DNA from: an uncultured Gemmatimonadales bacterium
GTDB lineage: Bacteria > Gemmatimonadota > Gemmatimonadetes > Gemmatimonadales > GWC2-71-9
Length of the DNA: 64,000 nucleotides
NCBI GenBank assembly: GCA_963697065.1
Contig: CAVOMQ010000003.1
Coordinates: 43,974 to 107,973 of the forward strand
Direction: 5' to 3'
The position numbers were made by a program, and so were the translations under genes. Shown piece after piece: positions 21,012 to 52,690 of this stretch (its first letter is position 1; each line of letters starts with the position of its first letter). The notes beneath the pieces are model-generated. The model was not told the DNA's origin. It worked only from the letters and a program-made list of their open reading frames with translations, and ran no database searches.

Positions 21012-21166
21012 CAATTTGTCCCCCGCCGCGCCACACACAGGAGTCGCCTAGTCCGCTGCCAGCGCCATTGGAGATGCGCGTGAGGAGCTGGACCGCGGTG
21101 TGCCAGCCCCCCCCGCGAATAGTAAAGCATGATGCGCCTGAACGCCGGCGACGAGACCACCGGTGA

Positions 21167-21463
21167 TCAGTAGATGCAGTGGTTCCCGTACCCAGAGCCC
21201 ATGTCCGAGCCATCTGGGGCGTAACAATCTGAAAAGTACTCGCAGTACGGTGCCTGCTCCTGCACGTCGCTCGAGCAGCCCCATTCGAGCGAGACGTCGA
21301 CGCACAACTGATGAGGATCGTCTGGACAGTCATCTCCCGCCTGGCATGCGTCGAATGCCATGCAGCCACCACCGCCCTGAGTAGCCAGTGCCGGCGTTGA
21401 GAAGTACGCCAGCGCAATAACTGAACTGCTCAACACAAGCAACAACTTCTGTCGAACTGTCAT
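21167..21463 (-). CDS. Secreted 8-Cys peptide P2
   Basis: GGAGG RBS; signal ending TPALA; mature part C-x5-C-x5-C-x7-C-x8-C-x10-C-x5-C-x15-C, acidic. Confidence 0.75.
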   Translation of the reverse strand: MTVRQKLLLVLSSSVIALAYFSTPALATQGGGGCMAFDACQAGDDCPDDPHQLCVDVSLEWGCSSDVQEQAPYCEYFSDCYAPDGSDMGSGYGNHCIY

Positions 21464-21505
21464 CGTTCCCTCCCGTTGAGTTGAATGATCGCTGCGCGCC
21501 GCGCT

Positions 21506-22186
21506 TTACGTTGACCGAGAACTTTGCCCAGCGGCCCTATGTAGGACGCGACGTACAATTTCGTCCAACCGCGCACTATCGAGAGCGCCAGTATAACGAA
21601 GCCCGTCGATGACAAGGGTCGGCGTCGCGTGAACCCCGGCTCGAACCGCCGCTATTGAATCCAGCGTGATCGCAGAAACAGGCGTCGATCGGTTGACGCA
21701 CGCAGCAAATGCGCCAGAATCCGTCACGCCAGCGTCGCGGGCGAAATCGGCAAAAGACTTCAGGCCCAGCGAATCCTGCTTCTGATACAATTCGTCATAC
21801 ATTGCCTCAAAACGATTCTGCGCTGCTGCGCATTCCGCGGCCCGGGCGCTAGCGTATGCGAAGCGGTGATATGGCAATGGGTAGTTCCGGAAAATGAGAG
21901 CAACTTGGCTGGGATACTCTGCATGAATTGCTCGAAATGAAGCAACAGCGAACGCACGGCAGGCCGGGCACTCGAAGTCACCGAACTCAATGATTGTCAC
22001 CGGCGCATGCAAGGGACCGATCCTGTGGCCGGCTGCGGCAAAGGTGAGCCAGTCGGAGATCTTCGTCGGCGCTTCCACCAGGGCTCTTGCACCCGCAGGC
22101 TTAGGCCAAAAAGTGCGCTTCACGCTGAGTCCGGTGGTGAAGACTGCGCAAACCGCTACCACGCCAATGACGACATTCGTCCTCAC
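21506..22186 (-). CDS. DsbA-family oxidoreductase (module 2)
   Basis: GPLHAPVTIIEFGDFECPAC, FRNYPLPYH, GVHATPTLVIDG; N-terminal TM. Confidence 0.85.
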   Translation of the reverse strand: MRTNVVIGVVAVCAVFTTGLSVKRTFWPKPAGARALVEAPTKISDWLTFAAAGHRIGPLHAPVTIIEFGDFECPACRAFAVASFRAIHAEYPSQVALIFRNYPLPYHRFAYASARAAECAAAQNRFEAMYDELYQKQDSLGLKSFADFARDAGVTDSGAFAACVNRSTPVSAITLDSIAAVRAGVHATPTLVIDGLRYTGALDSARLDEIVRRVLHRAAGQSSRST

Positions 22187-22214
22187 TTCGTTTCGTTCGA
22201 CGAAGTCTCTGCGG

Positions 22215-22310
22215 GGTGAGACTCGCCGCACTGAACACCTATCAATTCCCCGGATTCCGCCATACCAGAAAACAGCGCTTTCTGCTGCTTTTCGCCCAGT
22301 CACGCCTCGA
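22215..22310 (-). promoter_or_regulatory. Conserved intergenic element between AraC-like regulator and cargo (copy 2)
   Basis: Matches 11820-11914 (e.g. TCCCCGGATTCCGCCA.ACCAGAAAACAG.GCTTTCTGCTG.TTTTCGCCCAGT). Confidence 0.5.
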
Positions 22311-22982
22311 TCACCGATCTGTTACATATCCACCCGCCTGCAGAGCGGCCTCCAGCGCCGCCTCCCACGCATCCATTGCCACGAGCTCCCGCCAGGTCAG
22401 CCCGAAGTACCGGCGGCACCACCGCGAGACCGTCTTGACGTCCACGCCCGCCAGCTCCGCCGCCATGGCCTCCGTATGCCCGGCCGCAAGCGCCCGTGTG
22501 ATCAGCTCCAGGCAGCTCCCGAGTGCCCGCCAGTCGTGTGGCAGCCACGCTCCATACCTCCGGAGCGATCGGCGCAGCAAATCGGCGTCGACCGCAGAAT
22601 CCCGTAAGTCGGAGTACAGGTTGGCGAGACCGAGCGACGTCCTGAACGCGATGTAGGCGGCAATATCGGTGGCGTCGGGCATTCGGCGCTGACGGATTCC
22701 GTTCCTGATTTCGGCGACCGGGGGCAAAACCTCACCGCAAAGCGGAGTTACATGCATTGCAGAGGGAACCAGCAAGTCCAGGATCCGAGGCGCAACGTTA
22801 TGGGCGGCGACCAGGACCGTCGGGCACCATGGGCTGGCGCGCCATTGATCGACGGACTCCGCGACTCGCGCCAAATTGTCATCGCCGCCCGGAACCACGA
22901 GTACTGTGCCCAGCGGGCGCGGTGCGGGCGGCCCGGCGTCAATCGCCGTCGGTTCGCCGGGTAGCAGGCAACACACGGTCAT
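22311..22982 (-). CDS. AraC-like transcription regulator, copy 2
   Basis: Colinear paralog of 11915-12586 (MTVCCLLPG...GGYVTDR). Confidence 0.65.
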   Translation of the reverse strand: MTVCCLLPGEPTAIDAGPPAPRPLGTVLVVPGGDDNLARVAESVDQWRASPWCPTVLVAAHNVAPRILDLLVPSAMHVTPLCGEVLPPVAEIRNGIRQRRMPDATDIAAYIAFRTSLGLANLYSDLRDSAVDADLLRRSLRRYGAWLPHDWRALGSCLELITRALAAGHTEAMAAELAGVDVKTVSRWCRRYFGLTWRELVAMDAWEAALEAALQAGGYVTDR

Positions 22983-23036
22983 CTGTCGATGCCTCGGCTT
23001 GCGGCCACCAACCTCCCGCGAGCGCATCACACCGCC

Positions 23037-23104
23037 GTGGGTGGCGTGGGTGGCGTGGCGTGGCGTGGCGTGGCGTGGCGTGGCGTGGCGTGGCGTGGCG
23101 TGGC
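23037..23104. repeat. Pentanucleotide SSR: 11 perfect GTGGC units (23050-23104) plus 3 flanking units
   Basis: Counted directly; flanking units GTGG, GTGGC, GTGG at 23037-23049. Confidence 0.95.
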
Positions 23105-23109
23105 GTTCA

Positions 23110-23138
23110 ACGATACCGGCTGGTGCAACCGGTGTCAA
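23110..23138 (-). promoter_or_regulatory. sigma70-type promoter TTGACA-N17-TATCGT
   Basis: Read directly; same position relative to the SSR as the promoter at 12701-12729. Confidence 0.75.
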
Positions 23139-23210
23139 GCCGGCACCGCGCCAGCGCAGTTCCGCGGCAGTTACGTGTTGATCGGTGCCCGGATTTCCGG
23201 AACTGATCCG

Positions 23211-24741
23211 CTACTCCCCCCGATCCAGCACCCGGTACTGGATCGCCTCCCCCACATGCGCCGGCCCCACCTCGGCCGCCCCCTCCAGATCCGCCAGCGT
23301 CCGCGCCAGTTTGAGCACGCGGTGGTATGCCCGCGCCGACAGCCCCAGCTTGACGATCGCCTGCTTGAGCACCGCGTCGGTCGCGGCATCGGTCCGCACG
23401 AACTTCGCCAATTCGCGCGGCCCCATGTGCGCATTGGCATACACCCCGCGCACCTCCCGGAACCGCTCCAGCTGTCGCGCGCGCGCCGCCTCCACCCGCT
23501 GCCGCACCACGGTACTCGATTCCGCCGCCTTGCGCGCCGTGAGATCGTCGTAGCCACCGGCGGCACGCTCAGGTGAATGTCCACCCGGTCGAGCAGCGGC
23601 CCCGAGATCCTGGCGCGATACCGCTGCACCGCCATCGGCGAACAACTGCACTGCCGCGTCGCGTCACCCAGGTAGCCGCAGGGGCAGGGATTCATCGCCG
23701 CCACCAGCAGGAACCTCGCCGGGTACATGAGGCTCATCGCTGCACGCGCAATCGTCACCTGCCCGTCTTCCAACGGCTGCCGCAGCACCTCCAGCACATT
23801 GCTCGGCAACTCCGCCACTTCGTCGAGAAAGAGCACGCCGTGATGCGCCAGCGACACTTCGCCCGGGCGCGGAATCGCCCCGCCGCCGATCAATCCGGCA
23901 TACGAGACGGTGTGATGCGGCGCCCGGAACGGTCGGCGCGTCACCAGCGCCTGCCCCGCCGGCAGCAGCCCCGCCACGCTGTGGATCCGCGTCACGTCGA
24001 GCGCCTCGGCCAGCGACATCGACGGCAGGATGGTCGGCAGCCGCCGTGCCAGCATCGTCTTGCCCGCCCCCGGCGGACCGATCAGCAGCAGGTTGTGCGC
24101 TCCCGCCGCCGCCACCTCCATCGCCCGCTTGGCCGCGCGCCTGCGCCTTGACCTCGGCGAAGTCGACGTCAGCACTGCGGCAGCTCGTCCATCAGCGCGG
24201 CCGCGTCGGTGCGCACCGCGGCCAGCGGCGCCTCGCCGGTGACATGCCGGCAGACTGCCATCAGATTCGCGGCTCCCCGCACCGCCACGCCGCCCACCAC
24301 CGCCGCTTCTGCCACGTTCGCCTGCGGCAGGATCAGCTCGTCGCAGCCGAAGCCCCGCGCCGCCAGCGCAATCGGCAGCGCACCGCGAATTGGCCGGAGA
24401 TCACCCTCCAGACCCAGCTCACCAAGCAATAGCGAACGATGCAGCCGATCGTCGGGAATCTGCCCGCTCGCGGCGAGGATTCCGATGGCGACGGCCAGGT
24501 CGAACGCACTGCCCCGCTTCTGCACGTCGGCCGGCGCGAGGTTGACGGTGATGCGGCGCAGCGGCAACTGGAAGCCGGCGTTCTGGAGGGCGGCGGCGAC
24601 ACGTTCGCGCCCTTCCTTCACGGCGCCCACCGGCAGCCCCACCGTGGTGAACGACGGCAGCCCGTTGGCGATGTCGATCTCGACGTCGACGGCGAGCGCG
24701 TCGACGCCGAGGACAGTGGCGGAATGGATGCGGGAAAGCAG
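23211..24741 (-). CDS. comM: ComM/YifB Mg-chelatase-like AAA+ ATPase with three single-base frameshifts
   Basis: [14 protein letters not shown] start, [36 protein letters not shown]. Indels near 24172, 24140 and 23552; CTG follows the GGAGG RBS. Confidence 0.9.
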
Positions 24742-24855
24742 AACGGCCTCCGAGCAGGGAGGCCGGGAGGATCAGGTCTTCAATGGCGCGCAGCGAATCG
24801 AACGGACGCCGGCGGGTTCAAAGAAACGCAACGTTCGATGCGATCCGGCCGCCGT

Positions 24856-25419
24856 CTATGGCAACTTGATCCCGAACAGCGCCAGCAGTTGTTCCGCCCG
24901 CGCCATCACCGCCGTCTCCTGCGCCATCACCTGCTGGTCGGTGACGTCGAGCCGGGGCTCGAATCCCTGGTCGGTCCAGAGCAGCATCTTGCCCGCATCG
25001 AATGCGAACAGGTCGGCCGGCTCCTGCACCACGCTGACATCGCCCCCCACGAACCAGATGCTGGTGTCGGGCACCATGCCGGCAAGCGCGCTCGAATCAC
25101 TCACCACGAGCTTGCGCGGCACACCCGCGACGGTCCAGAGCGAGATCAGTTGGGGCACGGTGTCGGGTGGCGGTGGCACGATCGACGTGTCGCGCCGCTG
25201 CATCTGGTCGAGCGCGCCGTCGACGGACGACATGGTGCGCTGCATGATGCCGATCACCGCCCCGGTGTCACCGGGCGCCACGTCGGCGAACGTTTCGGGC
25301 AGTGCCGCGACGGCCGACGTCGCGGGCTCCCCGGTCGAAACGGAATCGCCGGGCGCCGGCGGGGAACTCCCGCGCCGGCACCCGGCGAGCAGCACGGCGA
25401 GCAGCGTCAGCCGGCGGAT
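24856..25419 (-). CDS. Hypothetical lipoprotein
   Basis: Lipobox LLAGC; the signal peptide extends in frame to ATC at 25419 after GGAAGG (first standard start GTG 25395). Confidence 0.65.
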   Translation of the reverse strand: MRRLTLLAVLLAGCRRGSSPPAPGDSVSTGEPATSAVAALPETFADVAPGDTGAVIGIMQRTMSSVDGALDQMQRRDTSIVPPPPDTVPQLISLWTVAGVPRKLVVSDSSALAGMVPDTSIWFVGGDVSVVQEPADLFAFDAGKMLLWTDQGFEPRLDVTDQQVMAQETAVMARAEQLLALFGIKLP

Positions 25420-25431
25420 GGTTCCCTTCCC

Positions 25432-25809
25432 TCAGAAGCCCCGGGCACCACGGCCGGTCGCCGCCGCCACGGAGTCGAACTTCGGCTTCTGCACGTCGGT
25501 CAGGATGCTGTCGATGGACATCTTGAACGAATCGAACACGTCCTGCTGCTTCTTCGTCGAGTCCGGCGACACCACGGCGCCGGCCTGGCGCTGATCACGA
25601 GTGTATTGCTGCAAGGGTTGTACGACCTTGTTGTACGTCGTGAGTGCCGCCTGATACGCGGTCTTCTGCGGCGACGAAAGCTTGAGCAGCGCGTTCATCT
25701 GGTCGTAATTCAGGATGCCTTGCGGTCCGAATCCGCGCCCGCCGCGTTGAGCCGCCAGGGGGGACACCGCCACCACCAGCAATGCCAGCAGTGCAAAACG
25801 GGACTTCAT
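25432..25809 (-). CDS. Secreted helical protein (Spy/CpxP-like)
   Basis: Signal peptide PLAA, LKLSSPQK and ILTDVQKPKF (LTxxQ motifs), RGG-rich ends. Confidence 0.6.
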   Translation of the reverse strand: MKSRFALLALLVVAVSPLAAQRGGRGFGPQGILNYDQMNALLKLSSPQKTAYQAALTTYNKVVQPLQQYTRDQRQAGAVVSPDSTKKQQDVFDSFKMSIDSILTDVQKPKFDSVAAATGRGARGF

Positions 25810-25933
25810 AGAAGGAGACTCCGGGAGACTGGTTCACCCCGCTGGAATCGTCCGGGAATCGGCGCACCGCGGGTCGGCTTTGCTACGCCGGGAGACCACA
25901 GCAGGTTGAAACGTGGTCCGGACCTTCCCGGAA

Positions 25934-28900
25934 TCACTCCCCGTCGCCCGGCCCGGCACTCTGCGCGGGGACGAACCGGATCCGGAACGCCGCACCGCGT
26001 CCCGGCCCGCTCTCCGCCCCGATCGTGGCCCCCCACCCCTCCACCAGCCGCCGGACGATGGCAAGCCCGAGGCCGGTCCCGCTGGTCCGGGTCGAGAACG
26101 ACGGCTCGAAGATCCGCCCCAGCTGGTCGGCGGGGATCCCCGGCCCGTTGTCCTCTATATCCAGCGCGTTGCTGCCGACCACCAGCCGGACCCGGTCCGC
26201 CCCGGCCTGGCGGGCGTTGTCGAGCAGGTTGAGCAGCACCTGGACCAGCTCTTCCCGGCGGGCCCGGACCGGACCGACCTCGCCGTCGTTGCCGGTGACG
26301 TCGATCCGGAGCCCGTCCGACCCGAGACCGTACAGACCGGCGATCTCTTCACTCACTGCCAGGAGATCGATCGGCTCGAGCGGAGCCACCGACCGGTCGG
26401 GTGGCGCACCGTAGCGGGCGAACGAGCGCGCGATCCGGTCGAGCCGCTCGATCTCGGCGAGCAGCCTCGTCACCGTGTCGTCGACCAGTTGCCGCAGGTC
26501 CGGATCGACGGTCGCTTTCGCCTCCTGTGACACGCGGCGGAGATGCTGCAACCCGAGCCGCATCGGCGTGAGCGGATTCTTGATCTCGTGCGCCACCTGC
26601 CGCGCCATCTCGCCCCACGCCAGCACCCGGGCCGCCCGCGCCGCTTCGGTGATATCGGTGAGCGCGAGGACCAATCCGCCGTCGACCAGCGGGGCGAGTG
26701 TCACGTCGAACCGCCGCATCTCCACCGCGAACTCGAAGCTTTCCGGGGTGCGTGTCTGGCGCCTGAGCAGCCGGTCGACGCCATCGGCAATCGGCGACCA
26801 CGGCGCGGGGAGTTGTTCGCGGATCGGCCGGCCCGGTTGGACGTGGACGCCGAGCAATTCGGTGGTACGCGGATTGGCATGGGTCACCACGCCGGCTGAG
26901 TCGACGCCCACCACGCCGGTCGCCACGGTGGCCAGGATCGCCGCGGTCCGCGCCCGTCCCGCCCGCAGTTCCGATTCGCTGGCGCGGAGATCATGCTCCA
27001 TCTGGCTGATGGCGCCGAACACCGGGACGAACTCGGCCGGGATCGGTTCTGCGGGCGGTGCTGCTTCACCACGACCGATCGCGAGAGCAGTGCGCCGCAG
27101 CGTATCGATCGGTTGTCCCAGTCCGTCCGCCACCCGTCCCGCGACCACGATCGCCGCACCGGCCCCGGCGAGCGTGGTGAGCACCAGCAGCATCGCCAGA
27201 TCCACCTGGCCGCCTTCAAAATCGGTTTCGCCGCCCGGGAGTACCGCGGCGATCAACGTGGCGGGCCGCGCCGTCGCCTGCACGCCGACCCGTGCCCGGC
27301 CACTGGGAAGCGAGTTCGACAGATTGGCCGGACCGAGTGCCGTGGCGGCGTGCGACGGCGGATTGATCGCCGCCGGCAGCAGCCCGAGTTGTTCCAGAAT
27401 CGGATTGCTGGCGGTGATCAGCCGGCTGTCGCGATAGACGCCCAGCTCGGCGCTGACGTCGTCGGCCACCAGTGCCAGGGAGTCGTGATCCGGCCTCGGC
27501 GCGTCGGCAATCGACAGCCCGCCGTTGACCGTGACGTCGCGCAGCGTCGCTTCGAGGTCGTCGGCCCGCTGGTCGGCGGCGCTCAACCGCAACCGATACA
27601 CCGACCAGAGCGTGAACAGCGCCGCCGGCACGATGAAGAACGCCATCAGCGCGGTGGCGATCATCCGCCGGTACGATCGCCGGAACACCGGTGCTCCCGG
27701 CGGCCGCCAATGTCCGAACAGCCACTGCAACCCGAACCACACCGCGCCCACCACCACCAGGTCGAGAATCGTCACCAGCACGGCGCGCACGGCATACTGT
27801 GCCGGTTTGGCGATCTCGATTTCGGCTCGCACGGTGCGGGGAAATTCGCCGCCGGTCACCACCCGGTCGGTGCGGATGAAGCGGTTGGTGCGGTAGAACG
27901 CCGTGTCGGGCGACGCCGCCGCCGCCGGGATCACGTCCACCCGATACGAGGGCGTCGCCGTGCTCCGCCACCCGGTGAGCTGCCCGAACACCGTCGGCAC
28001 CAACAGGTGCGAGCGCGGGCCGACCATCACCGTCGCGATCGTGTCGGGCGTGAGCGGCAACACCAGCACGTCATGATGCCCGGCGCCGCGCGCCAGCGAC
28101 ACGATCACGGCGGTGTCGCCCACGCTCCGGACCAGCGGGGCCAGGTCGTACCAACTCACCGAAAGCGAGTCGAGCGGCACTTCGTCAAGCTGGTGACCGG
28201 TACTGTCCCACAGCGAGAGGTAGGACGGAAAACCATCCCGCCACAGCGGCGAACTTCGCCACGCGGCATAGAGCCGGTCGAGACGCGTGGCGTGTGCGGC
28301 CTGCGCCGTGGCCGCGAAGGAGTCGAGCGCATTGACGGCGAGCGTGTCGGACGTGGCATCGAGCCGCGCAAGGTCGGTCGAGGCCAGCGCCATGGTGCGT
28401 TGCAGCGATGCGCTCCAGGTGGCCAGCCCGGCCAGCGTCACGGCACAGGTTGCCACCGCCGCCAACCGGATCCGGGGCGGCGCCGGCGCGAGCAACAACC
28501 CCAGCGGCACGGCCCAGAGTACCACGTACCACACCGCCCAACCCGACGGACTCCATCCCTCCACTCCCGCGGCGCCGACGATCAGCGCGGTGACGATCGC
28601 CAGCCTCCCGAACCACGGGGTGCGGGCAGGATCGTCGGGATTGCGCAACAGCACGTTCGCGAGCGCGAGGTAGCTCGCCGCCGCCACCGCGACGATCACT
28701 TCCCACAGGAACCACGTCGGCGACGATTGCAACTCGCCCAGCGGTATCAGGGCGCGAGCGCCGGCCGCGACGAGCCACGGCGAGGCCGCGAGCTGTATCG
28801 CGGCCACGGTCCCTCCGACCACGGTCCGCCGCGTGGTCCGCCGCCACGCAATGATCGCCAGCTCGGCGATTGCCGCGGTCACCAGCACTGCTTCGATCAA

Positions 28901-29866: not shown

Positions 29867-29921
29867 TGGCTGGTCACCGTAAGTGGCCACGGCATCACCC
29901 ATTGACCGGTAAGGACGGAAC

Positions 29922-31463: not shown

Positions 31464-31490
31464 ACGACCCGAAAGGAACGTCACACAGCC

Positions 31491-35984: not shown

Positions 35985-36007
35985 CTGGGCCAGCGCTATC
36001 TTCCTCC

Positions 36008-37252: not shown

Positions 37253-37255
37253 CCG

Positions 37256-38503: not shown

Positions 38504-38528
38504 AGCCCAGAGCCCAGGGCTCTGGGCT
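38504..38528 (+). terminator. REP-like hairpin / terminator after the efflux operon
   Basis: AGCCCAGAGCC-cag-GGCTCTGGGCT (11-bp stem) followed by ATTTT. Confidence 0.6.
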
Positions 38529-38539
38529 ATTTTCCCCCC

Positions 38540-39256: not shown

Positions 39257-39274
39257 CCGCTCCGGTATCAACAT

Positions 39275-39303
39275 TGTAAATCGTTACAGTGAAGCACTTT
39301 ACA
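39275..39303. promoter_or_regulatory. AT-rich nested palindrome upstream of iscS
   Basis: TGTAAA-N17-TTTACA containing TGTAA-N4-TTACA and AGTG-aag-CACT. Confidence 0.4.
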
Positions 39304-39386
39304 CCGGCGTGCCGACGGCGCATCGTTGCGGGATGATCGTTGCCGTCGAGTCGCCGCGCGCCCCGGTGATGGGTAGATTTGGGCCC

Positions 39387-40556
39387 ATGGACGCGATCTA
39401 TCTCGACAATGCCGCGACGACCCCCGTCCGGGGTGACGTCCTCGAAGCGATGCTGCCGTTCTTCAACGCCTCCTGGGGAAACCCCTCGTCGGCCCACCGG
39501 TTCGGGCGAGCCGCCCGGGCGGGGATGGAACAGGCCAAGCGCGAGGTGGCCGAGGCGCTGGGGGTCGAGCCCAACCAGGTGATCTTCACCTCGGGCGGCA
39601 CCGAGGCCGACAACCTGGCGGTGATCGGTGCGGCACTCGCCGCCCGGAATCACGGCCGGCCGATGCACGTCGTGACCACCGCCATCGAGCACAAGGCGGT
39701 GCTCGCCGCGGCGCATGCCGTGGTGGAACTCGGTGGCGAAGAGACGATCCTCCCGGTCGGACCGGACGGAGTGGTCGATCTCGACGCCCTCGACGCCGCG
39801 CTTGCGACCCACCCCGCGCTGGTATCGGTGATGTGGGTCAACAACGAGGTCGGTGTCGTCCAGCCGGTGGTCGACATCGGCGCCCGCTGCGCCGCCGCCG
39901 GGGTGCCGTTCCACAGCGACGCCGTGCAGGCATTCGGCAAGGTGCCGATCGACCTCGCCGCCGCCCGGTGTCAGTTGCTGTCCATCAGCGGCCACAAGCT
40001 CGGCGCCCCCAAGGGAATCGGCGCCCTCATCGTGCGCGACCGCACCATCATCGAAGCGATCATCCATGGCGGCGGGCAACAGTTCGGCATCCGTCCCGGC
40101 ACCGAGAACGTCGCCGGCGCGGTGGCCCTTGGCCGCGCGGCGAAACTTGCCCGCGCCGAACTGGAGCGCGAGGCGAATCGATTGGGACGGTTGCGGGACG
40201 ATCTTGCGAGCCGGCTCACCGCGGGTGTGCCCGACGCGGTGGTCCATGGCGCCGCCGCCGAACGCGCGCCGCACGTGCTGTCGCTGGGGATTCCCGGCGC
40301 CGAAGCGGAAGCGCTGCTGATGCACCTCGACCTGGCGGGTGTGGCGTGTTCGGGGGGATCGGCCTGCTCGACCGGTTCGGTCGAACCGTCGCACGTGCTG
40401 GTGGCGATGGGCGTGGCACCCTCGGTGTCCACCAGCACGCTGCGTTTTTCCCTCGGGCACGACACCACGCCAGCCCACATCGACCGCGTCGTCGAGCTCT
40501 TCCCCGGCATCGTCGCCAGGGTGCGCGAATTGCACCGGAGTCTCGGGCGTGCCTGA
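39387..40556 (+). CDS. iscS: Cysteine desulfurase (IscS/NifS type)
   Basis: [40 protein letters not shown]. Confidence 0.9.
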
Positions 40557-41628
40557 AGCGGGGCGGTCCCGGATTCTGGTGGCGATGAGCGGTGGTGTCG
40601 ACTCGTCGCTGGCCGCGGCGTTGCTGGTGGAACAGGGGCACGACGTGATCGGGGCGACGATGAAACTGTTCTGCTACGGCGACAACGTCCCCGACCGGCC
40701 GTGCTGTTCGCTCGATTCGATCGCCGATGCGCGCGCCGTGGCCCATCGCCTCGGCATCCCGCATTACGTGCTCAACTTCGAGGATCGCTTCTCCGACCGG
40801 GTGATCGACAACTTCGTCGACGAATACGCGCATGGACGCACGCCGATTCCCTGTGTGCGCTGCAACTCGTTCACCAAGTTCCGCGACCTGCTTGCCCACG
40901 CCGACGCGCTGGGATGCGACGGGATTGCCACCGGCCACTACGCCAACGCCCGCGACGGCGCCCTCTACCGCGGCAACGACCGCGGCAAGGACCAGAGCTA
41001 CTTCCTCTGGGGCATCGACCGCGGTGTCGTCGGGCGGATGTGGACACCGGTGGGGGGACTGACCAAGGCGGAAACGCGCCGCCGGGCCCGGGCCCTGGGG
41101 CTCGAGACCGCCGACAAGCCGGAGAGCGTCGAGATCTGTTTCGTGCCCGACGACGACTACGTCGGCGTGCTTGAACAGCGCCTTCCCGCCGACGCGCCGG
41201 CGCTCACCCCCGGTCCGCTGGTCACGACCGCCGGCGACGTGATCGGTGAACACCACGGCTTTGCCCGCTACACGCTGGGTCAGCGCCGCGGACTCCCCGG
41301 CGGACGTTCGCTGCCGCTCTATGTCGTGGCGATCCGCCCCGACACGCGCGAAGTCGTCGTGGGGGGCGAAGACGAGCTGTTGGGCCACGGGGCGACGCTG
41401 GCGGAGTGCAATTGGCTCGCCGAGCCGCTCGCGCCGGGCGAACGATGCTTCGCGCAGCTCCGCTATCGCGCCAGGGCGGTGCCGGCCGTCGTCCGCGAAA
41501 CCAGCGGCGATCGGGTCGTGCTCGAGCTGCACGAGCCGGTGCGCGCCATCACGCCGGGCCAGTCGGGCGTTCTCTATTCGGCGGCCGACCAGGTGCTGGG
41601 TGGCGGCGTGATCGAGGCGGCGGCGTGA
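40549..41628 (+). CDS. mnmA: tRNA 2-thiouridylase MnmA
   Basis: [41 protein letters not shown]. Confidence 0.93.
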
Positions 41629-43763
41629 ACCCGACCGCGGCCGCCGTCGACCTGCACGGCGCCACGGCGCCCGCGACGCCGGCAAGGCCGGCCGACCTGC
41701 GCGACGCATCGCTCTACCTCAATCGCGAGCTGGCGTGGCTCGAGTTCAATCGCCGCGTGCTGCACGAGGCGCTCGACGCGCGGACGCCACTGCTCGAACG
41801 GGTCAAGTTCCTCGGCATCTTCTCGAGCAATCTCGACGAGTTCTTCCAGGTGCGCGTGGCCGGCCTGCGCGAACAGGTGGCGGCGCGCGTGCTGGAACGC
41901 GCCCCCGACCGGATGCCGCCGGGGCAGCAGCTCGCCGCCATCCGCACCACGGTGCGCAGCCTCGTCGACCAGCATTCGCGCTGCCTGATTCACGACGTCC
42001 TGCCGGCGCTCGCCGCCAACGGCATCAAGCTGCACGATCGCTTCGACGCGCTGTCGCCGCTGGAACGGGAGCACCTGACGGAGTATTTCCGGTCGAACGT
42101 CTTTCCGGTGCTGACGCCGCTGGCGGTGGACCCGGCGCATCCGTTCCCGCACATCTCCAACCTGTCGCTGTCGCTGGCGGTGTCGCTCGCCGACGCCGAT
42201 GGACGCACCCACTTTGCCCGCGTCAAGGTGCCGAAGCTGTTGCCGCGGTGGGTACCGCTGACCCGGCCGAACGAGTTTCTCCCGCTCGAATACCTCATCG
42301 GGGCGCACGTCGAGGCGCTCTTCCCCGGCGTGCAGATCCTCGGTTGGCACCTCTTCCGGATCACCCGCAATACCGAGCTCAATCTCGAATTCGGCAGCGG
42401 CAGCAACGACGAAGCGGAAGATCTCCTCGAGCTGATCCAGGAAGAAGTGCGCAACCGGCGCTTCGGCGAGGTGGTGCGGCTCGAGGTGCAGAAGTCGATG
42501 CCGCCGTCGCTGCGGGCGCTGCTGATCGAGGAGTTCAACGCGGCCGACGCCGACGAGGGGCTGCCGCTCACCGACGACGACGTGTTCGAGGTGGCCGGCC
42601 CGCTCGACGCCAGTGACCTGGCCTCGATCGCGGCGATCGATCTGCCGGCGCTGCACGACCCGCCATTCATCCCCGCCACGCCCCGGCGCCTCGCGGAGGA
42701 TCACGACCTCTTCGCCACCATCCGCGAAGGCGACGTGCTGCTCCACCACCCGTACGACTCGTTCCAGACCTCGGTGGAGCGGCTGATCGCCGTCGCCACC
42801 GAAGATCCCGACGTGCTCGCCATCAAGATCACCCTGTACCGCACCGGCGGCGAGATCGCCCGGCTGCTGGCCCTGGCCGCCGAACGCGGCAAGCAGGTGG
42901 CGGTGCTGATCGAACTGCAGGCGCGCTTCGACGAAGAGAACAACATCAGCTGGGCGAAACGCTTCGAAGACATCGGCGTGCACGTCAGCTACGGCGTGTC
43001 AGGACTCAAGACCCACGCCAAGGTGTTGCTGGTGGTGCGCCGCGAAGGGGACGCCATCCGTCGCTACGTGCACGTCGGCACCGGCAACTACAATCCGAAG
43101 ACGGCGCGGTCCTACACCGACTTCGGGCTGATCACCGCCGATCCGGAGATCGGCATGGACCTGAGCGACCTGTTCAACGTGTTGACCGGCTTTGCCGCCC
43201 CGGCCGGTTACCGCAAGCTGCTCGTCGCGCCGCGGTGGATGAAGCTGCGCTTTCTGGAGCTGATCGACCGCGAGGCGATGCACGCCCGCGAAGGGCGGCC
43301 AGCGCACATCATCGCCAAGATGAACGCCCTGGTCGACCAGGACATCATCGAGGCACTGTATCGCGCCTCGGGAGCCGGCGTCCGGATCGACCTGATCATC
43401 CGCGGCATCTGCTGCCTCCGTCCCGAACTGCCGGGGGTGAGCGACAACATCCGCGTCATCTCCATCGTCGGCCGCTTCCTGGAGCACTCCCGGGCGTTCG
43501 TCTTTGCCAACGGCGGCGAAGAGGAAGTGTGGATCTCCTCAGCCGACTGGATGCCGCGCAATCTCGACCGCCGCATCGAGGCGGCGGTGCCGATCCAGGA
43601 CCCGCGCTACCGCGTCGAGATCCACCGGGTGCTGGAATTGATGCTGCACGACAATCGCGAGGCGTGGGACATGCGCGCCGACGGGAGCTTCGTGCAACGC
43701 ACGCCGGCGGCGGATGAACGGGAGCGAGCGACACATCGGATGCTGATCGAGCAGCGGAGATAG
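41625..43763 (+). CDS. ppk1: Polyphosphate kinase 1
   Basis: [55 protein letters not shown]. Confidence 0.95.
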
Positions 43764-43769
43764 TACCCC

Positions 43770-43797
43770 GAAGGCGCCCTGGGCTCCGGGCGCCTTC
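43770..43797. terminator. Hairpin between convergent ppk1 and dnaJ
   Basis: GAAGGCGCCC-N8-GGGCGCCTTC perfect 10-bp stem. Confidence 0.65.
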
Positions 43798-43810
43798 GCC
43801 TCACCAACCA

Positions 43811-44902
43811 TCAGGTGGCGGCAGACTTCTCACCGAACGCCTTTTCGATCGCCTCTTTCTGCTCGTCACTGAGCTTCTCCGGGATCCGCACTTTCACCGT
43901 CACCACTTCATCGCCGGCCTGGCCGCTCTTTTCGAGCCCCTGGCCGCGGATGCGGAATTTGCGCCCCGGCTGCGTGCCGGACGGGATCTTGAGCCGCACC
44001 TTGGCACCACGGACCGTGCGCACCTGGATCACCGCACCCAGCAACGCCTGCGAGAGTGAGATCGGGATTTCGCAGAGAATGTCGAGACCGTCGCGGCTGA
44101 AGAAGCGATCGGGCTCCACCTGGAACGTGACCAGCACGTCGCTGGGACGCCCCCCCGCCTTGGCCCGGGGACCTTGCTCCTTGAGGCGCACGCGGGTGCC
44201 GCTGTCGGTGGCCGGAGGGACGGTCACGAGCAGGTGCTTTTCGGCGCGCACTTCGCCGCTGCCGCCGCAGGTGTGACACGGCGTGCCGGGGATCTTGCCG
44301 CGCCCACGGCACACCGGACAGGGGCGGTTCACGGCAAAGCCGCCCTGTCCGAAGGAGATCGTTCCGGTGCCTTTGCACTCCGGACAGGTCGTGAGCGACG
44401 TGCCCGGTTCCGCACCGGTGCCACCGCAGGTGGCACACACGTCGTTCATCGCGAGCGTCACCGGCACCTTGCCACCGGTGGCCGCAGTCCGGAACGGGAC
44501 GCTGACGGTGACCTCGACATGATCTGGCTCGACCTCCTCACCGCCGCCGCGGCGCCGCCCGAAGATCGATGAGAAGATGTCGCCCAGTCCGAACGACCCG
44601 AAGTCGCCGAAATCGACCCCTTCCGCACCGCCCTGGCCGCCGCCGGGCCGTGGCGCGCCGCGCGGGCCGGTGGTGTCGAACGCACCCAGCCGCCGCATGC
44701 GGTCGTACTTGCTGCGCTGCTCCGGGTCCGACAGCACGGTGTTGGCCTCGGAGATCTGCTTGAAGCGCTCCGCCGCCTGCGGATTGTTGGGATTGGCGTC
44801 GGGATGGAACTGCTTGGCCAACTTGCGGTAGGCCTTCTTGATGTCGGCGGCGGTCGCCGACTCGGGAACGCCAAGAACCGAGTAGAAATCCTGGCTGGCC
44901 AC
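43811..44902 (-). CDS. dnaJ: Chaperone DnaJ
   Basis: J-domain HPD, G/F region, four CxxCxGxG repeats. Confidence 0.95.
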   Translation of the reverse strand: MASQDFYSVLGVPESATAADIKKAYRKLAKQFHPDANPNNPQAAERFKQISEANTVLSDPEQRSKYDRMRRLGAFDTTGPRGAPRPGGGQGGAEGVDFGDFGSFGLGDIFSSIFGRRRGGGEEVEPDHVEVTVSVPFRTAATGGKVPVTLAMNDVCATCGGTGAEPGTSLTTCPECKGTGTISFGQGGFAVNRPCPVCRGRGKIPGTPCHTCGGSGEVRAEKHLLVTVPPATDSGTRVRLKEQGPRAKAGGRPSDVLVTFQVEPDRFFSRDGLDILCEIPISLSQALLGAVIQVRTVRGAKVRLKIPSGTQPGRKFRIRGQGLEKSGQAGDEVVTVKVRIPEKLSDEQKEAIEKAFGEKSAAT

Positions 44903-45463
44903 TCAGTTACCCTGGTCGGAATAGACCTGGACGCGCGCCGGCCGGATCACCGCGCCCTTGAACCGGTAGCCGGTCTGGAAGACCGCCTTGACGGTATGGT
45001 CCTGATCCGGCCGTTCGGCGGGGGCCACGGACACCGCCTCATGCTGGGTGGGATCGAACGGTTCGCCCACGGCCGCGATCTGCTCCAGCCCTGCCGCCTG
45101 CAGCTCCTTCCACAGCTTCCGCTGGATCAGCAGGAACGCGCTCTGGAAGGTGTCCGTCGGCTCCGGGTGGCCGGCCGCCAGGCGGTCGATGTCGTCGATC
45201 ACGTCGAGCAGCCGCAACGCCAGCGCCGCGGCTCCCCGGTCGAAGGCCTCGGTCTTCTCGCGGTGGGTGCGCTTGCGATAGTTGTCGTATTCCGCGGCGA
45301 GGCGCAGGAACCGATCCTCGGCGTCGGCCACCGCCTTGGCCGCCTCGGCGGCCGGTATGCTGTCCTCCGGGCGCCAGTCCTCCTCCGGAGGCTGGGGCTC
45401 GGTCATGGGCAGGTCGCGATCGGCGTTTCCGGCAGCGCCTTCCATCGGATCTTCAGCCTTCAC
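44903..45463 (-). CDS. grpE: Nucleotide exchange factor GrpE
   Basis: RLAAEYDNYRKR, FDPTQHEAV, GYRFKGAVIRPARVQV; GTG with AAGGAG RBS. Confidence 0.92.
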   Translation of the reverse strand: MKAEDPMEGAAGNADRDLPMTEPQPPEEDWRPEDSIPAAEAAKAVADAEDRFLRLAAEYDNYRKRTHREKTEAFDRGAAALALRLLDVIDDIDRLAAGHPEPTDTFQSAFLLIQRKLWKELQAAGLEQIAAVGEPFDPTQHEAVSVAPAERPDQDHTVKAVFQTGYRFKGAVIRPARVQVYSDQGN

Positions 45464-45537
45464 GTGGGGGCTCCTTTCCGCATCCGCTGAAAGGAACGCA
45501 ACCCATGTGCCGGAAGGCAATGCCGGAAAGGCAGCCC

Positions 45538-45677
45538 GGAGCCCAGGGCCCAGAGCCCCGCATGTCGGACTCGGCGCGTAGAGTCAACATCACGGCGATG
45601 CGACCAGACGCCACACCGCCGAACGCTGTGCAAGCCGAGTTCCGTGTTCGGGGCCATGGGCTCTGGGCCATGGGCTC
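45538..45677. repeat. REPIN/MITE-like palindromic element, copy 1
   Basis: Left arm GAGCCCCGCA.GTCGGACTCGGC and right arm GCCGAGT...GTGTTCGGGGCCATGGGCTC shared with 51488-51649. Confidence 0.65.
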
Positions 45678-45684
45678 GCTTCTT

Positions 45685-47307
45685 CTAGTACCGCCATCCT
45701 TTCGTATCCGCCCCCGCCGGCGCATGGGCGAGCAGCTGCGCCTCCATCTTCTGGAGAATCTCCGGCATCCGCGGCCCCCAGCAGTGCGGCGCCATCGGCT
45801 GGAAGACGATCTCGCCGGTCCACTTCGGATTCGCCGTGGTGGTGAGGAAATCATCGAGCATGTGGACGCCCATGTTGAGGTAATACGTGTCCATGGCACC
45901 GACGTAGACGTTGATCTTGTCAGCCACCTTCGGCCCCAGCGTCGACCAGTTGGTCTGGAGGATGTTCCGCAGGTCGTAGTGTTGCTTCCAGTAGTCGGCC
46001 ACCTGGTGGTCGATCACACCGGTCACCTTGTTCCAGATCGGCGCCGGGTAGCCGCCCGCTCCGACCGGACTGTACGTCGCCTGCCAGATGTCCCACTGAC
46101 CGCCGGAGCGGCCGCTGTCGCCCACCACCAGCTCGTACCAGTTCTCGTCCTTCATCATCGTGGTGATGTTGCCATCGGGCCGCCGGACGTCGGGGCGTTC
46201 CACCTTCATCCAGCCGTGATCGACCCAATAGGCGTTGCTGTCGCTGTAGATGTTCACGATCTGGTGGTAGCGGAAGTCCACCGCGTCGGGACAGAGCGCC
46301 CAGGTGCCGCCGTAGAAGTCGGGGTAGAAGACCTGCTGGGAGAGCGCGATCCATCCGCCCGTCGATCCGCCGGTGAGGAGCCGCGCCCACGGCTGGCCGA
46401 TCACGCGGAAGCGCTTCTCGACCGCCGGGATCAGCTCCTGCATGATCGCGTCGCCGTACGGGCCGTTGTTGGCCGAGTTGACGCCGTAGGAATCGTCGTA
46501 ATAGGGCGACGGATGCTGGAGCGAGACCATGATCACCCGCGGCGTGCTGTCGGCGAGCCATTGCGCGTTGGCACCGCCGCCCGGCGCGCGCAGCGAGAAG
46601 TGGCCTTCGTCGTAGACGATCGGGTACTTCACGTCGGGGTGTGTGTCATAGCCCTTCGGCAGCAGGACGATGGCGCCGAGGAAGATCGGCTGCCCCCACC
46701 ACTTCGAGAGAATGTCGCTCTTGATCCTGATGTGCTTGACATATTGGTCGTCAGCCGGCTCGGTGATCGGCGGAATCACCTGGTCAGCGACAAGCCGGAT
46801 CGGCGTCGACGACTTGGGATCGAAGGTGATCTGCACCGGCTTGCCATGGATGTTCCCCGGCGAGCTCTTCCAATCCTGTCCTTCCCACTGGTCCATGTGC
46901 AGCCAGACCACATGCCCGTCGGCGCGCGCGAACCGGGTGTAGATGTTGACGAACGGTTCCACCCAGTAGGTGCCGGCGGGGATGTCGCGCAGCGAGCGCG
47001 CCGGGTAGCCGAAGGTCGATGCGTCGATCACGGCCGGAGCGCCGGGCTTGAGTGCCTCGACATTCACGCCGAAGAGCGGCACGCCGTCTTCTCCGGTCTG
47101 GTCGATCGGGGTGCGGCGGGCGTCGTTGACCCGGGTGATCGCCACATACACGCGCCCGGTGATCGGGCCGGCGTGCGCGGACGCGGGGAACGAGATCTCG
47201 AAACGCGGGCCGGTGGCACGCTGGCCCGAGATGGCGGCGATGGGGAGTATGGTGATGATCGCCATGCAGACGGGCTGCGGCCAACGCCGTCGGACAGTCA
47301 GTATCAC
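45685..47307 (-). CDS. Secreted alpha/beta hydrolase (putative esterase family)
   Basis: IVLLPKGYD, NNGPYGDAIMQELIPAVE, LLTGGSTGGW nucleophile elbow; GGAGG RBS with GTG. Confidence 0.8.
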   Translation of the reverse strand: MILTVRRRWPQPVCMAIITILPIAAISGQRATGPRFEISFPASAHAGPITGRVYVAITRVNDARRTPIDQTGEDGVPLFGVNVEALKPGAPAVIDASTFGYPARSLRDIPAGTYWVEPFVNIYTRFARADGHVVWLHMDQWEGQDWKSSPGNIHGKPVQITFDPKSSTPIRLVADQVIPPITEPADDQYVKHIRIKSDILSKWWGQPIFLGAIVLLPKGYDTHPDVKYPIVYDEGHFSLRAPGGGANAQWLADSTPRVIMVSLQHPSPYYDDSYGVNSANNGPYGDAIMQELIPAVEKRFRVIGQPWARLLTGGSTGGWIALSQQVFYPDFYGGTWALCPDAVDFRYHQIVNIYSDSNAYWVDHGWMKVERPDVRRPDGNITTMMKDENWYELVVGDSGRSGGQWDIWQATYSPVGAGGYPAPIWNKVTGVIDHQVADYWKQHYDLRNILQTNWSTLGPKVADKINVYVGAMDTYYLNMGVHMLDDFLTTTANPKWTGEIVFQPMAPHCWGPRMPEILQKMEAQLLAHAPAGADTKGWRY

Positions 47308-47441
47308 GGTTCCTCCTGGAGGACTGAACTATAGCCCGGGCCGGACCAAGCCTGGCGCTCCCTGCCGGCCAATGCCCGACTGACGCCATTCTCGCCCGCG
47401 TCAGATCCTGATCCGAGCGCGCACCACGCGTTCCAATCCGC

Positions 47442-47470
47442 TTGACACTCGTTCGCAACGCGAGTATTAC
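47442..47470 (+). promoter_or_regulatory. sigma70-type promoter TTGACA-N17-TATTAC
   Basis: Both boxes conserved at 51934-51962 while the spacer differs. Confidence 0.65.
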
Positions 47471-47471
47471 C

Positions 47472-48134
47472 TTGTTTGTACACCAGCAGGATCCGGATCC
47501 CCTGACCGCATTGGACATCGATTGCGTTGGCGCACTGCATGGGCGACTGCTCGCCGGATACCCTGAGGCGGGCCCCGAGATCGCGGCTATCGCCTACGGT
47601 CCGCTGGTCGAGTACCTCATCGCCCATCACCCTTGCGTTGACCCCGGCGCGGTTCACGACGCCGTGGCCGACGCGGTCGTTGCCTATCTCGACCGCCCGG
47701 CCCGGGCCAACGGGGTCGGCGGACGCCAGGTCATGGCGCATCTTCAGCTTGCCGCGTGGCGGAACATCCTGAACCATCGGCGCCGGGAAGGTCGGCTCAA
47801 GCGGCGTGAACAGCGTTACGCAGCCGACCTCGGCCGGCGGCGGCGCGATTCGGACCGGCGGGTTGTTGCTCTTCTGGGTTCCGCGGGGAAAGTATTAGAG
47901 GAGGCGATAGATCCGGGCGAGTCCGCGGAAGTGTCAGCGATGGAGCCCGCCGGGTGGAGCACCGAGGAACGGACCGTCTGGGTGCTCTTCCGGGCCGGCG
48001 AACGACGAACTGCGGAGTACGCCGCGGCGCTCGGGATCACGGGTCGGCCCGTGTCAGACCAGCGGGTGATCGTCAAGCGCATCAAGGAGCGGCTCCGGGT
48101 GCGCGTGAAGCGGGGGGGGGGGCGTAGACGATGA
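47472..48134 (+). CDS. ECF sigma-factor-like regulator, copy 1
   Basis: Region-2-like VHDAVADAVVAYL..HLQLAAWRNILNHRRRE and region-4-like ERTVWVLFRAG..EYAAALGI..VKRIKERLR; TGA overlaps the dsbA ATG. Start inferred. Confidence 0.65.
   Translation: MFVHQQDPDPLTALDIDCVGALHGRLLAGYPEAGPEIAAIAYGPLVEYLIAHHPCVDPGAVHDAVADAVVAYLDRPARANGVGGRQVMAHLQLAAWRNILNHRRREGRLKRREQRYAADLGRRRRDSDRRVVALLGSAGKVLEEAIDPGESAEVSAMEPAGWSTEERTVWVLFRAGERRTAEYAAALGITGRPVSDQRVIVKRIKERLRVRVKRGGGRRR
48112..48122 (+). repeat. G11 homopolymer at the 3' end of ECF copy 1
   Basis: Counted directly. Confidence 0.85.
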
Positions 48135-48982
48135 GGTTCAGCAACGGGATTACAAACGGCTTGATGGTTGTCTCGGTCGTCTGCGCCGTCAGTCTGACGG
48201 GTATGCAGGTTTGGGAGCGGTTCGGTCCGGCGGTGCCGCCCACTGGGCCGTCGGCGCTTCGTGGCGCCGACACGGTCCGCATTCCGGATTGGCAACACGA
48301 CACAGTCGGTGGCCATCATCTGGGACTCGCGACAGCTCCTGTTACGATCATCGAGTTCGCGGACCTCGAGTGCCCCGTATGCCGGCAGTTCACTATCGGT
48401 GCTTTGGCATACATACGTGCGAAATACCCAACGGATGTGCAAGTCGTGTTTCGCCATTGGCCACTGAGCTATCATCATTTCGCGTACCCCGCGGCGCGGG
48501 CCGCTGAGTGCGCGGCCGCCCAGGGGCGATTTGATGCATTCCAGCAGTTGGTGCACGCCAAACAGGACTCGCTGGGGCTGAAGGCGTTCGGGGACTTTGC
48601 CCGGGAGGCGGAAGTGCCGGATGCGCGGGCGTTCGCCACGTGCAATGCCCAAACCGGTCCCGTTGCAGCGGTCGAAGCCGATATCAACGTCGCGAAGGCC
48701 GTGGGCGGTCGGGGGACGCCGACCATCGTCATCAACGGCTTGCGGTTAACTGGTGCGCCCGATTCCGCCTCGCTCGGTCGGCTCATCGAATCCGCGTTGA
48801 AGCAAATCCACGTTTCCGGCGGTACCAGCCCCGGGAAGGGGATTTCCCGGACTCGGCTGGAGCTGCCAACTACCGGCACTCTCGATCACCTGGAAACGCC
48901 TGCGGCCGTGGCATCCAACATCTTCACGCCGAACCCGAATCACGCCATCGCAACGCCCGAAGGAACCATACTCAGGAGGTAA
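48131..48982 (+). CDS. DsbA-family oxidoreductase (module 3)
   Basis: GLATAPVTIIEFADLECPVC, FRHWPLSYH, GGRGTPTIVING; N-terminal TM. Confidence 0.85.
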   Translation: MRFSNGITNGLMVVSVVCAVSLTGMQVWERFGPAVPPTGPSALRGADTVRIPDWQHDTVGGHHLGLATAPVTIIEFADLECPVCRQFTIGALAYIRAKYPTDVQVVFRHWPLSYHHFAYPAARAAECAAAQGRFDAFQQLVHAKQDSLGLKAFGDFAREAEVPDARAFATCNAQTGPVAAVEADINVAKAVGGRGTPTIVINGLRLTGAPDSASLGRLIESALKQIHVSGGTSPGKGISRTRLELPTTGTLDHLETPAAVASNIFTPNPNHAIATPEGTILRR

Positions 48983-48984
48983 CT

Positions 48985-49278
48985 GTGTTCAGCAAGCAGA
49001 TGATCGTCACCGGCCTTGCGAGTGTTACCGTCCTTGCCGCCGCGCTGGTGCATCCGCCAACCGCACAAGCAATGTGGCCGTCCTGCGGGCCGGGAGTGTA
49101 CACCATGTGCCTGGACGGGTTGGATCTTCCGGAGTGCTATGACGATCCAATATCGCTATGCCACGACTATCTCCAGCGCAACTACAGCTGCGACGGCAAC
49201 GTGATCGGGGCATACTGCCAGGTAAACGAAGACTGCGATTGGTCCAGCGAGGTGGTATGTTACGTCGAAGCCACCTGA
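48985..49278 (+). CDS. Secreted 8-Cys peptide P3
   Basis: GGAGG RBS with GTG; signal ending PPTAQA; C-x7-C-x8-C-x7-C-x9-C-x8-C-x5-C-x7-C. Confidence 0.75.
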   Translation: MFSKQMIVTGLASVTVLAAALVHPPTAQAMWPSCGPGVYTMCLDGLDLPECYDDPISLCHDYLQRNYSCDGNVIGAYCQVNEDCDWSSEVVCYVEAT

Positions 49279-52615: not shown

Positions 52616-52690
52616 CGCTGCGAGCAACGATCGTTGTGTTCGGAATACCGGTCTGTGAGATCATTGTTCAATTCCAGCAAGGAGCGTCAG

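Follow-up and report, generated by a model that had tools for sequence, protein, structure and literature searches.

The window analyzed here is a stretch of 64,000 nucleotides from the genome of an uncultured Gemmatimonadales bacterium (G000; 3.18 Mb, 68% GC, five contigs), corresponding to positions 43974–107973 of its contig C3. It encodes two small cysteine-rich precursors, P2 and P3, each directly downstream of a gene for a membrane-anchored DsbA-like oxidoreductase. P2 (21167..21463, minus strand) is a precursor of 98 residues, with a signal peptide of about 27 residues cleaved between ALA and TQ, and its mature part has 71 residues, eight cysteines and a net charge of −13. P3 (48988..49278, plus strand) comprises 96 codons before the stop, begins with GTG, and has its cleavage site between AQA and MW, leaving a mature part of 68 residues with eight cysteines and a net charge of −11. 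Both signal peptides are of the Sec type with an AxA site at the end, and the mature parts contain no lysine or arginine in P2 and a single one in P3. With these charges, both peptides are indeed as strongly acidic as an earlier note on this DNA, made from the sequence alone, had described them.

The ATG at 21463 is the start of P2, with the Shine-Dalgarno sequence GGGAGGGA located 5 nucleotides before it. For P3, the GTG at 48988 is the most likely start, having AGGAGG 5 nucleotides before it; the public gene call uses the same start and lists 97 residues. The GC content of P2 is 0.67 at third codon positions (GC3) versus 0.48 at second positions (GC2). The strong Shine-Dalgarno sites, ratios of nonsynonymous to synonymous substitution rates (dN/dS) of 0.13–0.67 between related peptides, and the presence of eight cysteines in these relatives show that P2 and P3 are real genes.

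The oxidoreductase gene preceding P2 (21506..22303, minus strand) encodes an N-terminal membrane anchor, a CPAC active site and a TP cis-Pro loop, and its product matches the Pfam families Thioredoxin_4 (1.7e-28) and DSBA (3e-09), each above the cut-off. The one preceding P3 (48131..48982, plus strand) likewise has a membrane anchor, carries a CPVC active site, and matches Thioredoxin_4 (2.6e-24). The two proteins, which are mutually 49% identical, reach Thioredoxin_4 scores of 100.3 and 86.7 bits versus a cut-off of 23.2 bits; among solved structures, both are nearest to the chains designated DsbA in 4pwo/4pwp, to which the P3-linked protein aligns with E = 3.5e-15, CPxC and GTP being in register. 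On these sequence features (a fold match above cut-off, CPxC and the cis-Pro loop), we classify both as DsbA/Thioredoxin_4 enzymes.

A family of acidic eight-cysteine peptides

The earlier note had proposed that P2 and P3 define a single family with the motifs CxDDPxxLC and YCx4DC. Both motifs are present as described (CPDDPHQLC and YCEYFSDC in P2; CYDDPISLC and YCQVNEDC in P3), and the Cys-to-Cys loop lengths (5,5,7,8,10,5,15 in P2; 7,8,7,9,8,5,7 in P3) agree with the reported equal spacings between the third and fourth (seven residues) and the sixth and seventh cysteines (five residues), the other loops differing. In the six-frame translated genome, C.DDP..LC occurs twice, in P2 and P3 only, versus 0.034 occurrences expected, while YC....DC occurs four times versus 1.4 expected. 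The local alignment of P2 with P3 gave z = 4.1–4.2 relative to composition-preserving shuffles, 6 of 2000 of which reached the observed score, whereas five other secreted Cys-rich peptides of G000 gave z of no more than 2.0 against P2 and P3.

Taken alone, the two peptides resemble each other only weakly: BLASTP between P2 and P3 gave only 22 bits, and hidden Markov models (HMMs) built from P2 or P3 alone did not significantly detect the other peptide among the 39,254 open reading frames (ORFs) of the genome (E = 8). These results speak for the possibility that the two are unrelated Cys-rich ORFs, alike through composition and chance. We nevertheless regard this as highly improbable, given the shuffle-controlled score, the rarity of the common motif, the location of both genes directly downstream of DsbA paralogs that are 49% identical, and the intermediate sequences that link the two peptides. 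P3 aligns with L023p at z = 20, with L021p at z = 16, and with G018c, a peptide of the related genome G018, at z of about 9; L023p and G018b also give about 9, G018b against the members of subfamily B (see below) 5–6, P2 against L023p 5.1, and P2 against members from the genomes G014 and G009 and the database protein P0010 4.0–4.6. Because these intermediate sequences join them in a connected network of scores, P2 and P3 fall into one family. Moreover, P2 is the top genome-wide match of profiles built only from members in other genomes. As delimited here, the family is supported by pairwise scores controlled with shuffles, by the intermediate sequences and by gene context.

A profile search of the G000 ORFs added two members on contig C5 (C5a and C5b), and six-frame searches of relatives added members in G018, G014 and G009. 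Among 5.8 billion protein clusters and 1.84 billion representative proteins, searches returned P0005, P0008, P0009 and P0010, of which P0009 and P0010, found by profile search of the representatives, later proved to have the same gene context. L021p, L023p and G018c were found by walking from homologs of the partner proteins described below. Because a closing search with a P3-type profile added just one extra protein, P0058, which is counted as a member on its profile score only, we estimate that all the data searched contain about 18 distinct members. The proposal of a single family with eight cysteines is thus borne out, and the searches extend it beyond the two peptides on which it was based. 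The family is rare and has so far been found in a single genus of uncultured Gemmatimonadales soil bacteria: members occur in four of 52 species genomes of this genus (four in G000, three in G018, two in G014 and one in G009), and 77 other genera of the same taxonomic family, represented by about 293 genomes, yielded none.

We define members by a Sec signal, a net negative charge, an aromatic residue after the last cysteine, a D-[PA]-x-x-[LI]-C core, a DsbA paralog in the cassette, and the cysteine pattern C-x4-7-C-x3-11-C-x7-9-C-x3-9-C-x8-11-C-x4-6-C-x5-15-C. P2 and P3 each display every one of these features. Eight cysteines are present in all 12 tabulated representative mature peptides, as well as in all other member sequences retrieved; the mature peptides are 62–72 residues long, contain 5–17 Asp/Glu residues, and are net negative in all 12 tabulated cases (−5 to −16 in the ten members computed). 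The best-conserved non-cysteine motif across subfamilies is the DDPxx[L/I]C core, with proline in at least 90% of alignment rows, and an aromatic residue follows the last cysteine in most rows. In the alignment, subfamily B (C5a, C5b, G018a and P0009) appears to have lost the third cysteine found in P3-type peptides and to have acquired another behind the fifth (CATPC), which, if the alignment registers are correct, would mean that one disulfide has been rewired.

The earlier note had recognized no named family here, and none of the peptides matched Pfam, NCBIfam or PADLOC at curated cut-offs, the sub-threshold hits (WRC, Sushi_2 and Paramecium_SA, one member each) were chance matches, and the family profile produced only chance matches against PDB sequences. 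CS-alpha-beta defensins were rejected as a class, since their signature C...CxxxC...C...CxC is absent: no member contains CxC, and CxxxC is found in some subfamilies only, at a position unlike that in the defensin signature, in peptides whose loops span 3–15 residues. Of the constant four-disulfide scaffold of the knottin or defensin kind that had been suggested, the eight invariant cysteines stand and the defensin signature does not; the disulfides themselves are predicted from Sec export and the adjacent DsbA. These features also bear on the idea of a metal or calcium binder, metallothionein-like or mineral-associated, in which the cysteines would be reduced or coordinate metal. Eight cysteines and 5–17 acidic residues within 62–72 positions would suit such a protein, yet we consider it very unlikely, as the cysteines are well spaced with no CC, CxC or CxxC clusters, the peptides carry a signal for export into an oxidizing compartment, and the neighboring DsbA-type oxidase argues for disulfides. 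Metallothionein-like peptides were likewise rejected by the missing clusters and the export signal.

Cassettes, regulators and partner proteins

Every family member lies in an accessory cassette that contains a membrane-anchored DsbA-like enzyme, usually a large secreted protein that we term F2 and/or an NHL-type propeller, and usually its own regulator (neighboring genes were called with a crude purpose-written GC3-based ORF picker). When the peptides and all cassette neighbors were scanned against Pfam, NCBIfam and PADLOC, the only proteins that could be named were DsbA, an outer-membrane barrel, and weak NHL/DUF5128 propeller and helix-turn-helix signals. The cassettes are compact clusters around a small Cys-rich precursor, as might be expected if this were a ribosomally made, post-translationally modified peptide (RiPP) whose core is enzymatically modified. 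We consider this exceedingly improbable: the precursors have a Sec signal instead of a leader peptide, and the neighbors include no radical-SAM, YcaO, lanthipeptide or other known maturase. RiPPs were rejected as a class on the same two grounds.

F2 proteins (secreted, 600–740 residues) are the most constant neighbors of the peptides. An F2 gene adjoins the peptide gene in the loci of P3, C5a, C5b, G018a, G018b and G018c, for both copies in G014, and in G009, L011, L012, L013, L021 and L023, and is located directly downstream of it in all of these except L013, where a short ORF was called between the two. There are two types, which have in common only their C-terminal approximately 200 residues (hhalign 99%, E = 3.4e-18): P3-type peptides are paired with F2b, and subfamilies B and C with F2a. 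Locus L015 (G014:C7:675471-684406) has the order F2, peptide, F2, peptide, F2, with a single propeller and a single DsbA behind them; the signal-peptide amino acids of its peptide paralogs are identical and the mature parts have diverged.

The F2b partner of P3 (49366..51477, plus strand) is a secreted protein of 703 residues with 42 homologs, all hypothetical proteins of Gemmatimonadales. AlphaFold2 modeled it with a mean predicted local distance difference test (pLDDT) score of 87.5 as N-terminal helical repeats, a middle alpha/beta part and two C-terminal beta-sandwiches. In a fold search, matches were confined to the sandwich part and to generic tandem beta-sandwiches (RbmA, transglutaminase C-terminal barrels, arrestin), giving no functional lead. 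The middle part contains an FWxRRD...DDRG...HGDP motif that resembles that of GWxTD-domain proteins; assignment to this domain (TIGR04514) was rejected, however, as F2b scores 14.6 bits (E = 0.036) and a homolog 13.4 bits versus a 28-bit cut-off. A literature search found no paper mentioning the domain.

In the P2 cassette, the gene order is DsbA, P2, propeller and barrel. The propeller (19854..21038, minus strand), a secreted protein of 394 residues, gave weak DUF5128 and ScyF-NHL matches as well as NHL-repeat matches among PDB sequences (best E = 5.8e-06), and homologous NHL/DUF5128-type propellers are present in cassettes of G014, L012 and P0010. Downstream of it, an outer-membrane barrel with CarboxypepD_reg and OMP_b-brl_4 domains (17124..19851, minus strand) is broken into two ORFs, 454 and 464 residues long, that overlap; a frameshift or an error in the assembly may account for the break.

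Upstream of the P2-linked DsbA gene is a putative F4-type regulator with a C-terminal helix-turn-helix (22311..23138, minus strand; weak HTH_28/HTH_29 matches), paralogs or orthologs of which head the C5b, G018a and G018b cassettes. The P3 cassette is headed by an F6-type protein of 230 residues (47442..48134, plus strand), a presumed regulator with no family or PDB match. It is 76% identical to the first approximately 210 residues of ORF 51968-52975, which continues in frame as another Cys-rich peptide (P4); given this resemblance, the next cassette begins with a near-copy of the presumed regulator. At the start of every complete cassette stands a regulator gene of either the helix-turn-helix or the 230-residue F6 type. 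This arrangement, together with the small, stable and exported nature of the peptide, would fit a secreted signal, detected either directly or via the partner, that feeds back on the cassette regulator. Such a signaling role is nonetheless quite unlikely in our view, because sensor kinases, anti-sigma factors and transmembrane receptors are all missing from the cassettes, and the regulators look cytoplasmic and are tied to the peptide by adjacency alone.

Cassette genes have a lower GC3 than core genes, and the cassettes are arranged in tandem beside repeated 3' pieces of a host gene, namely comM in the window and a gene for a 274-residue protein on contig C5. The P2 cassette lies between the comM body (Mg_chelatase, 334 residues) and a separate comM 3' fragment (Mg_chelatase_C, 164 residues), the two flanking pieces being at 15287-15781 and 23171-24175 of the window, and it looks like the cargo of an insertion into comM. 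On C5, the tandem cassettes at 72672-82169 are flanked by the repeated 3' end of this gene, at a site that is occupied in G018 by cassettes other than those of G000. The lower GC3, the differing content of tandem cassettes at the same site, and the occurrence in four of 52 genomes show that the distribution is patchy and cassette-like and that these loci are accessory.

The association between Thioredoxin_4 proteins and small Cys-rich peptides extends beyond this family: for 10 of the 13 Thioredoxin_4 paralogs of G000, a small secreted Cys-rich ORF lies no more than about 2.5 kb away, and several of these ORFs are of sequence types unrelated to P2 and P3. Other secreted miniproteins with six to eight cysteines, of unrelated types, are encoded at 11306-11581 (minus strand) and about 52690-52975 (plus strand) of the window, at C5:68148-68414, and on contig C1 at 1002565-1002795, 557004-557279, 534470-534916 and 1014942-1015280. 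Except for the last, each has a DsbA paralog at a distance of no more than about 2.5 kb, usually with a propeller, and a C-terminal CDP[FY]xSG[IV]N motif is common to P1 of the window and the peptide at C1:557004. The DsbA-like gene preceding C5a is split over two frames (C5:74524-75690, equivalent to L001:10524-11690, with the break near C5:75040) and is either a frameshifted pseudogene or the product of an assembly error; the C5a peptide and F2 genes behind it are intact.

Divergence of the peptides and their proposed role

In orthologous cassettes of the P3 type, the mature peptides are 38–42% identical, compared with 57–58% for DsbA and 46–66% for the F2 partner. In subfamily B, the corresponding values are 59–78% for the mature peptide, 85% for DsbA (one pair) and 60–68% for F2. 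The claim of hypervariable loops in the earlier note thus holds to a moderate degree only: P3-type peptides are less conserved than their neighbors, but in subfamily B the peptide is as conserved as the partner. A dN/dS comparison, run pairwise on the mature parts by the Nei-Gojobori method, yielded the range of 0.13–0.67 given above and no sign of positive selection; most pairs were saturated, with dS above 1. In subfamily C alone, dN is near 0 and dS 0.2–0.4 across the signal-peptide region, while the mature part has dS above 1 in all but the closest pairs. On these identity contrasts and dN/dS values, hypervariable loops on a fixed scaffold are a fair description of part of the family and not a demonstrated mode of selection.

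We tentatively favor, as quite possible though short of probable, a role in which a Sec-exported acidic miniprotein, with four disulfides introduced by its own DsbA, acts outside the cytoplasm together with a co-encoded partner. The precursor would be exported by Sec and cut after the AxA site to release a miniprotein of 62–72 residues, the eight invariant cysteines of which would be oxidized to four disulfides by the membrane-anchored DsbA-like enzyme of the cassette; the product would then act outside the cytoplasm with F2 or the propeller. In this scheme the cassette would comprise a regulator, a dedicated DsbA, the miniprotein, and a large secreted partner (F2 or NHL-type propeller). Export, cleavage and oxidation are suggested by the sequence features and by established knowledge of DsbA-type enzymes, and joint action with the partner by the persistence of adjacency across deep divergence. 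To judge from this adjacency, the miniprotein most likely binds its co-encoded partner, whether as ligand, inhibitor or small subunit. More generally, we infer disulfide formation, partner binding and any biological role from the sequences.

Several observations weigh against this proposal. Profiles built from single subfamilies fail to retrieve the other subfamilies at significant E-values in the genome ORF set, and AlphaFold2, applied to mature P2 with a 10-sequence alignment, yielded no usable fold (pLDDT 41). P2, the most divergent member, resides in a cassette without an F2 gene, and a C1 cassette with the P2-type layout (DsbA, peptide, propeller) carries an unrelated 7-Cys peptide; since these two cassettes combine the same layout with different peptides, peptide and partner types are shuffled, which weakens the notion of strict pairing. 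No overall charge complementarity was seen between the peptide and either F2 or the propeller. Finally, an F2b ortholog (43% identical) lies between ychF and rpsF-rpsR, a core-genome context (L025, L026 and L034; the Gemmatimonadales metagenome-assembled genome contig DASYEH010000014 and a JGI contig) in which a protein of 372–391 residues precedes F2b and no Cys-rich peptide or DsbA is found nearby. Its presence there without a peptide indicates that the partner does not generally need one, and hints that the cassette partner had a housekeeping ancestor.

A different function, bacteriocin-like antagonism, would have the released miniprotein harm competing relatives, with F2, the propeller or the barrel providing immunity, release or uptake. 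Such a function would agree with the character of the loci, which are accessory cassettes in multiple copies, patchily distributed and each equipped with a regulator, with the faster divergence of the peptide relative to its neighbors in P3-type cassettes, and with the outer-membrane barrel in the P2 cassette. Dedicated oxidoreductases are, moreover, known from some bacteriocin loci: the sublancin 168 operon (sunA-sunT-bdbA-sunS-bdbB) encodes its own oxidoreductase BdbB (PMC6391423), and the pediocin PedC locus (PMC4919988) and the enterocin F4-9 locus also have their own thiol-disulfide oxidoreductase, F4-9 being mentioned as a second such example in PMC6606811. Like the P2/P3 cassettes, these loci place a small exported disulfide peptide beside a dedicated oxidoreductase and are accessory or mobile. 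They differ in being Gram-positive, in using leader peptides and ABC exporters, in forming one or two disulfides, in being glycosylated in some cases, and in having a known antimicrobial function, whereas the cassettes described here combine a Sec signal, eight cysteines, a diderm host and no exporter, with no sequence similarity. We consider antagonism unlikely, since no ABC exporter, C39 peptidase, lysis gene or recognizable immunity gene is present in the cassettes, in a diderm cell a Sec signal carries the peptide no further than the periplasm, the strongly anionic peptides lack an amphipathic cationic part, and dN/dS is below 1. Class II bacteriocins and microcins were rejected as a class, as the signals are Sec-type AxA signals, not double-glycine leaders, and neither an ABC transporter nor a peptidase is a neighbor.

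Comparison with other systems and significance

The P2/P3 cassettes are a variation on the theme of a secreted disulfide peptide with its own oxidoreductase. Literature searches (for GWxTD, Gemmatimonadota Cys-rich secreted proteins, and peptide clusters with a dedicated DsbA) returned nothing on this system. Private DsbA paralogs are found in other settings, as in DsbL/DsbI with AssT in uropathogenic Escherichia coli and SrgA with PefA in Salmonella, where an extra DsbA paralog is likewise encoded beside the exported protein that it oxidizes; their substrates, however, are large enzymes or fimbrial subunits, and neither system has a miniprotein, a propeller or F2 partner, or cassette arrays. 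Methylamine dehydrogenase, in which the small subunit MauA sits on the beta-propeller heavy subunit MauB and the thioredoxin-like MauD is encoded, offers a precedent for a miniprotein, a propeller and a private oxidoreductase forming one periplasmic unit, for here, too, a small disulfide-rich subunit binds to a propeller and needs a thioredoxin-fold helper that is encoded in the cluster. MauA differs in having a tryptophan-derived quinone cofactor and 12 cysteines, whereas the P2/P3 family lacks a conserved tryptophan, and the cassettes contain no other mau genes and show no sequence similarity to methylamine dehydrogenase.

With knottins, CS-alpha-beta defensins and conotoxins, the family has in common a fixed cysteine framework, variable loops and a signal-peptide precursor and, in subfamily C, a signal region far more conserved than the mature part. 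It differs from these eukaryotic peptides in giving no sequence or profile match, in lacking CxxxC...CxC, in being longer (62–72 residues) and anionic, and in its dN/dS below 1. A recognition-peptide role is offered here as a hypothesis. It could be carried further, to swappable extracytoplasmic two-part modules of Gemmatimonadales, undescribed so far, in which a dedicated DsbA and an anionic four-disulfide miniprotein would be combined with a cognate F2 or propeller binder. Specificity would then reside in the miniprotein as the fast-evolving element, which would be a bacterial equivalent of recognition peptides of the conotoxin or defensin kind and would serve kin discrimination or antagonism, and cassette exchange would take place at hot spots located at gene 3' ends; this wider picture is speculative and, in our estimate, rather improbable as a whole.

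Animals, plants and fungi are well known to produce unmodified, Sec-exported, disulfide-rich miniproteins, but such proteins have, to our knowledge, hardly been described in diderm bacteria. The general importance of the family is limited by its narrow distribution, with one genus and about 18 sequences in the public data searched. It nevertheless represents a compact, testable case, having eight fixed cysteines, its own oxidase, a large, conserved partner that is confidently modeled, and natural variants in relatives. Its study could reveal the ways in which bacteria construct stable binding scaffolds outside the cell or in the periplasm and diversify them, and could give a first role to the unstudied F2/GWxTD-like proteins and propellers that are abundant in Gemmatimonadota.

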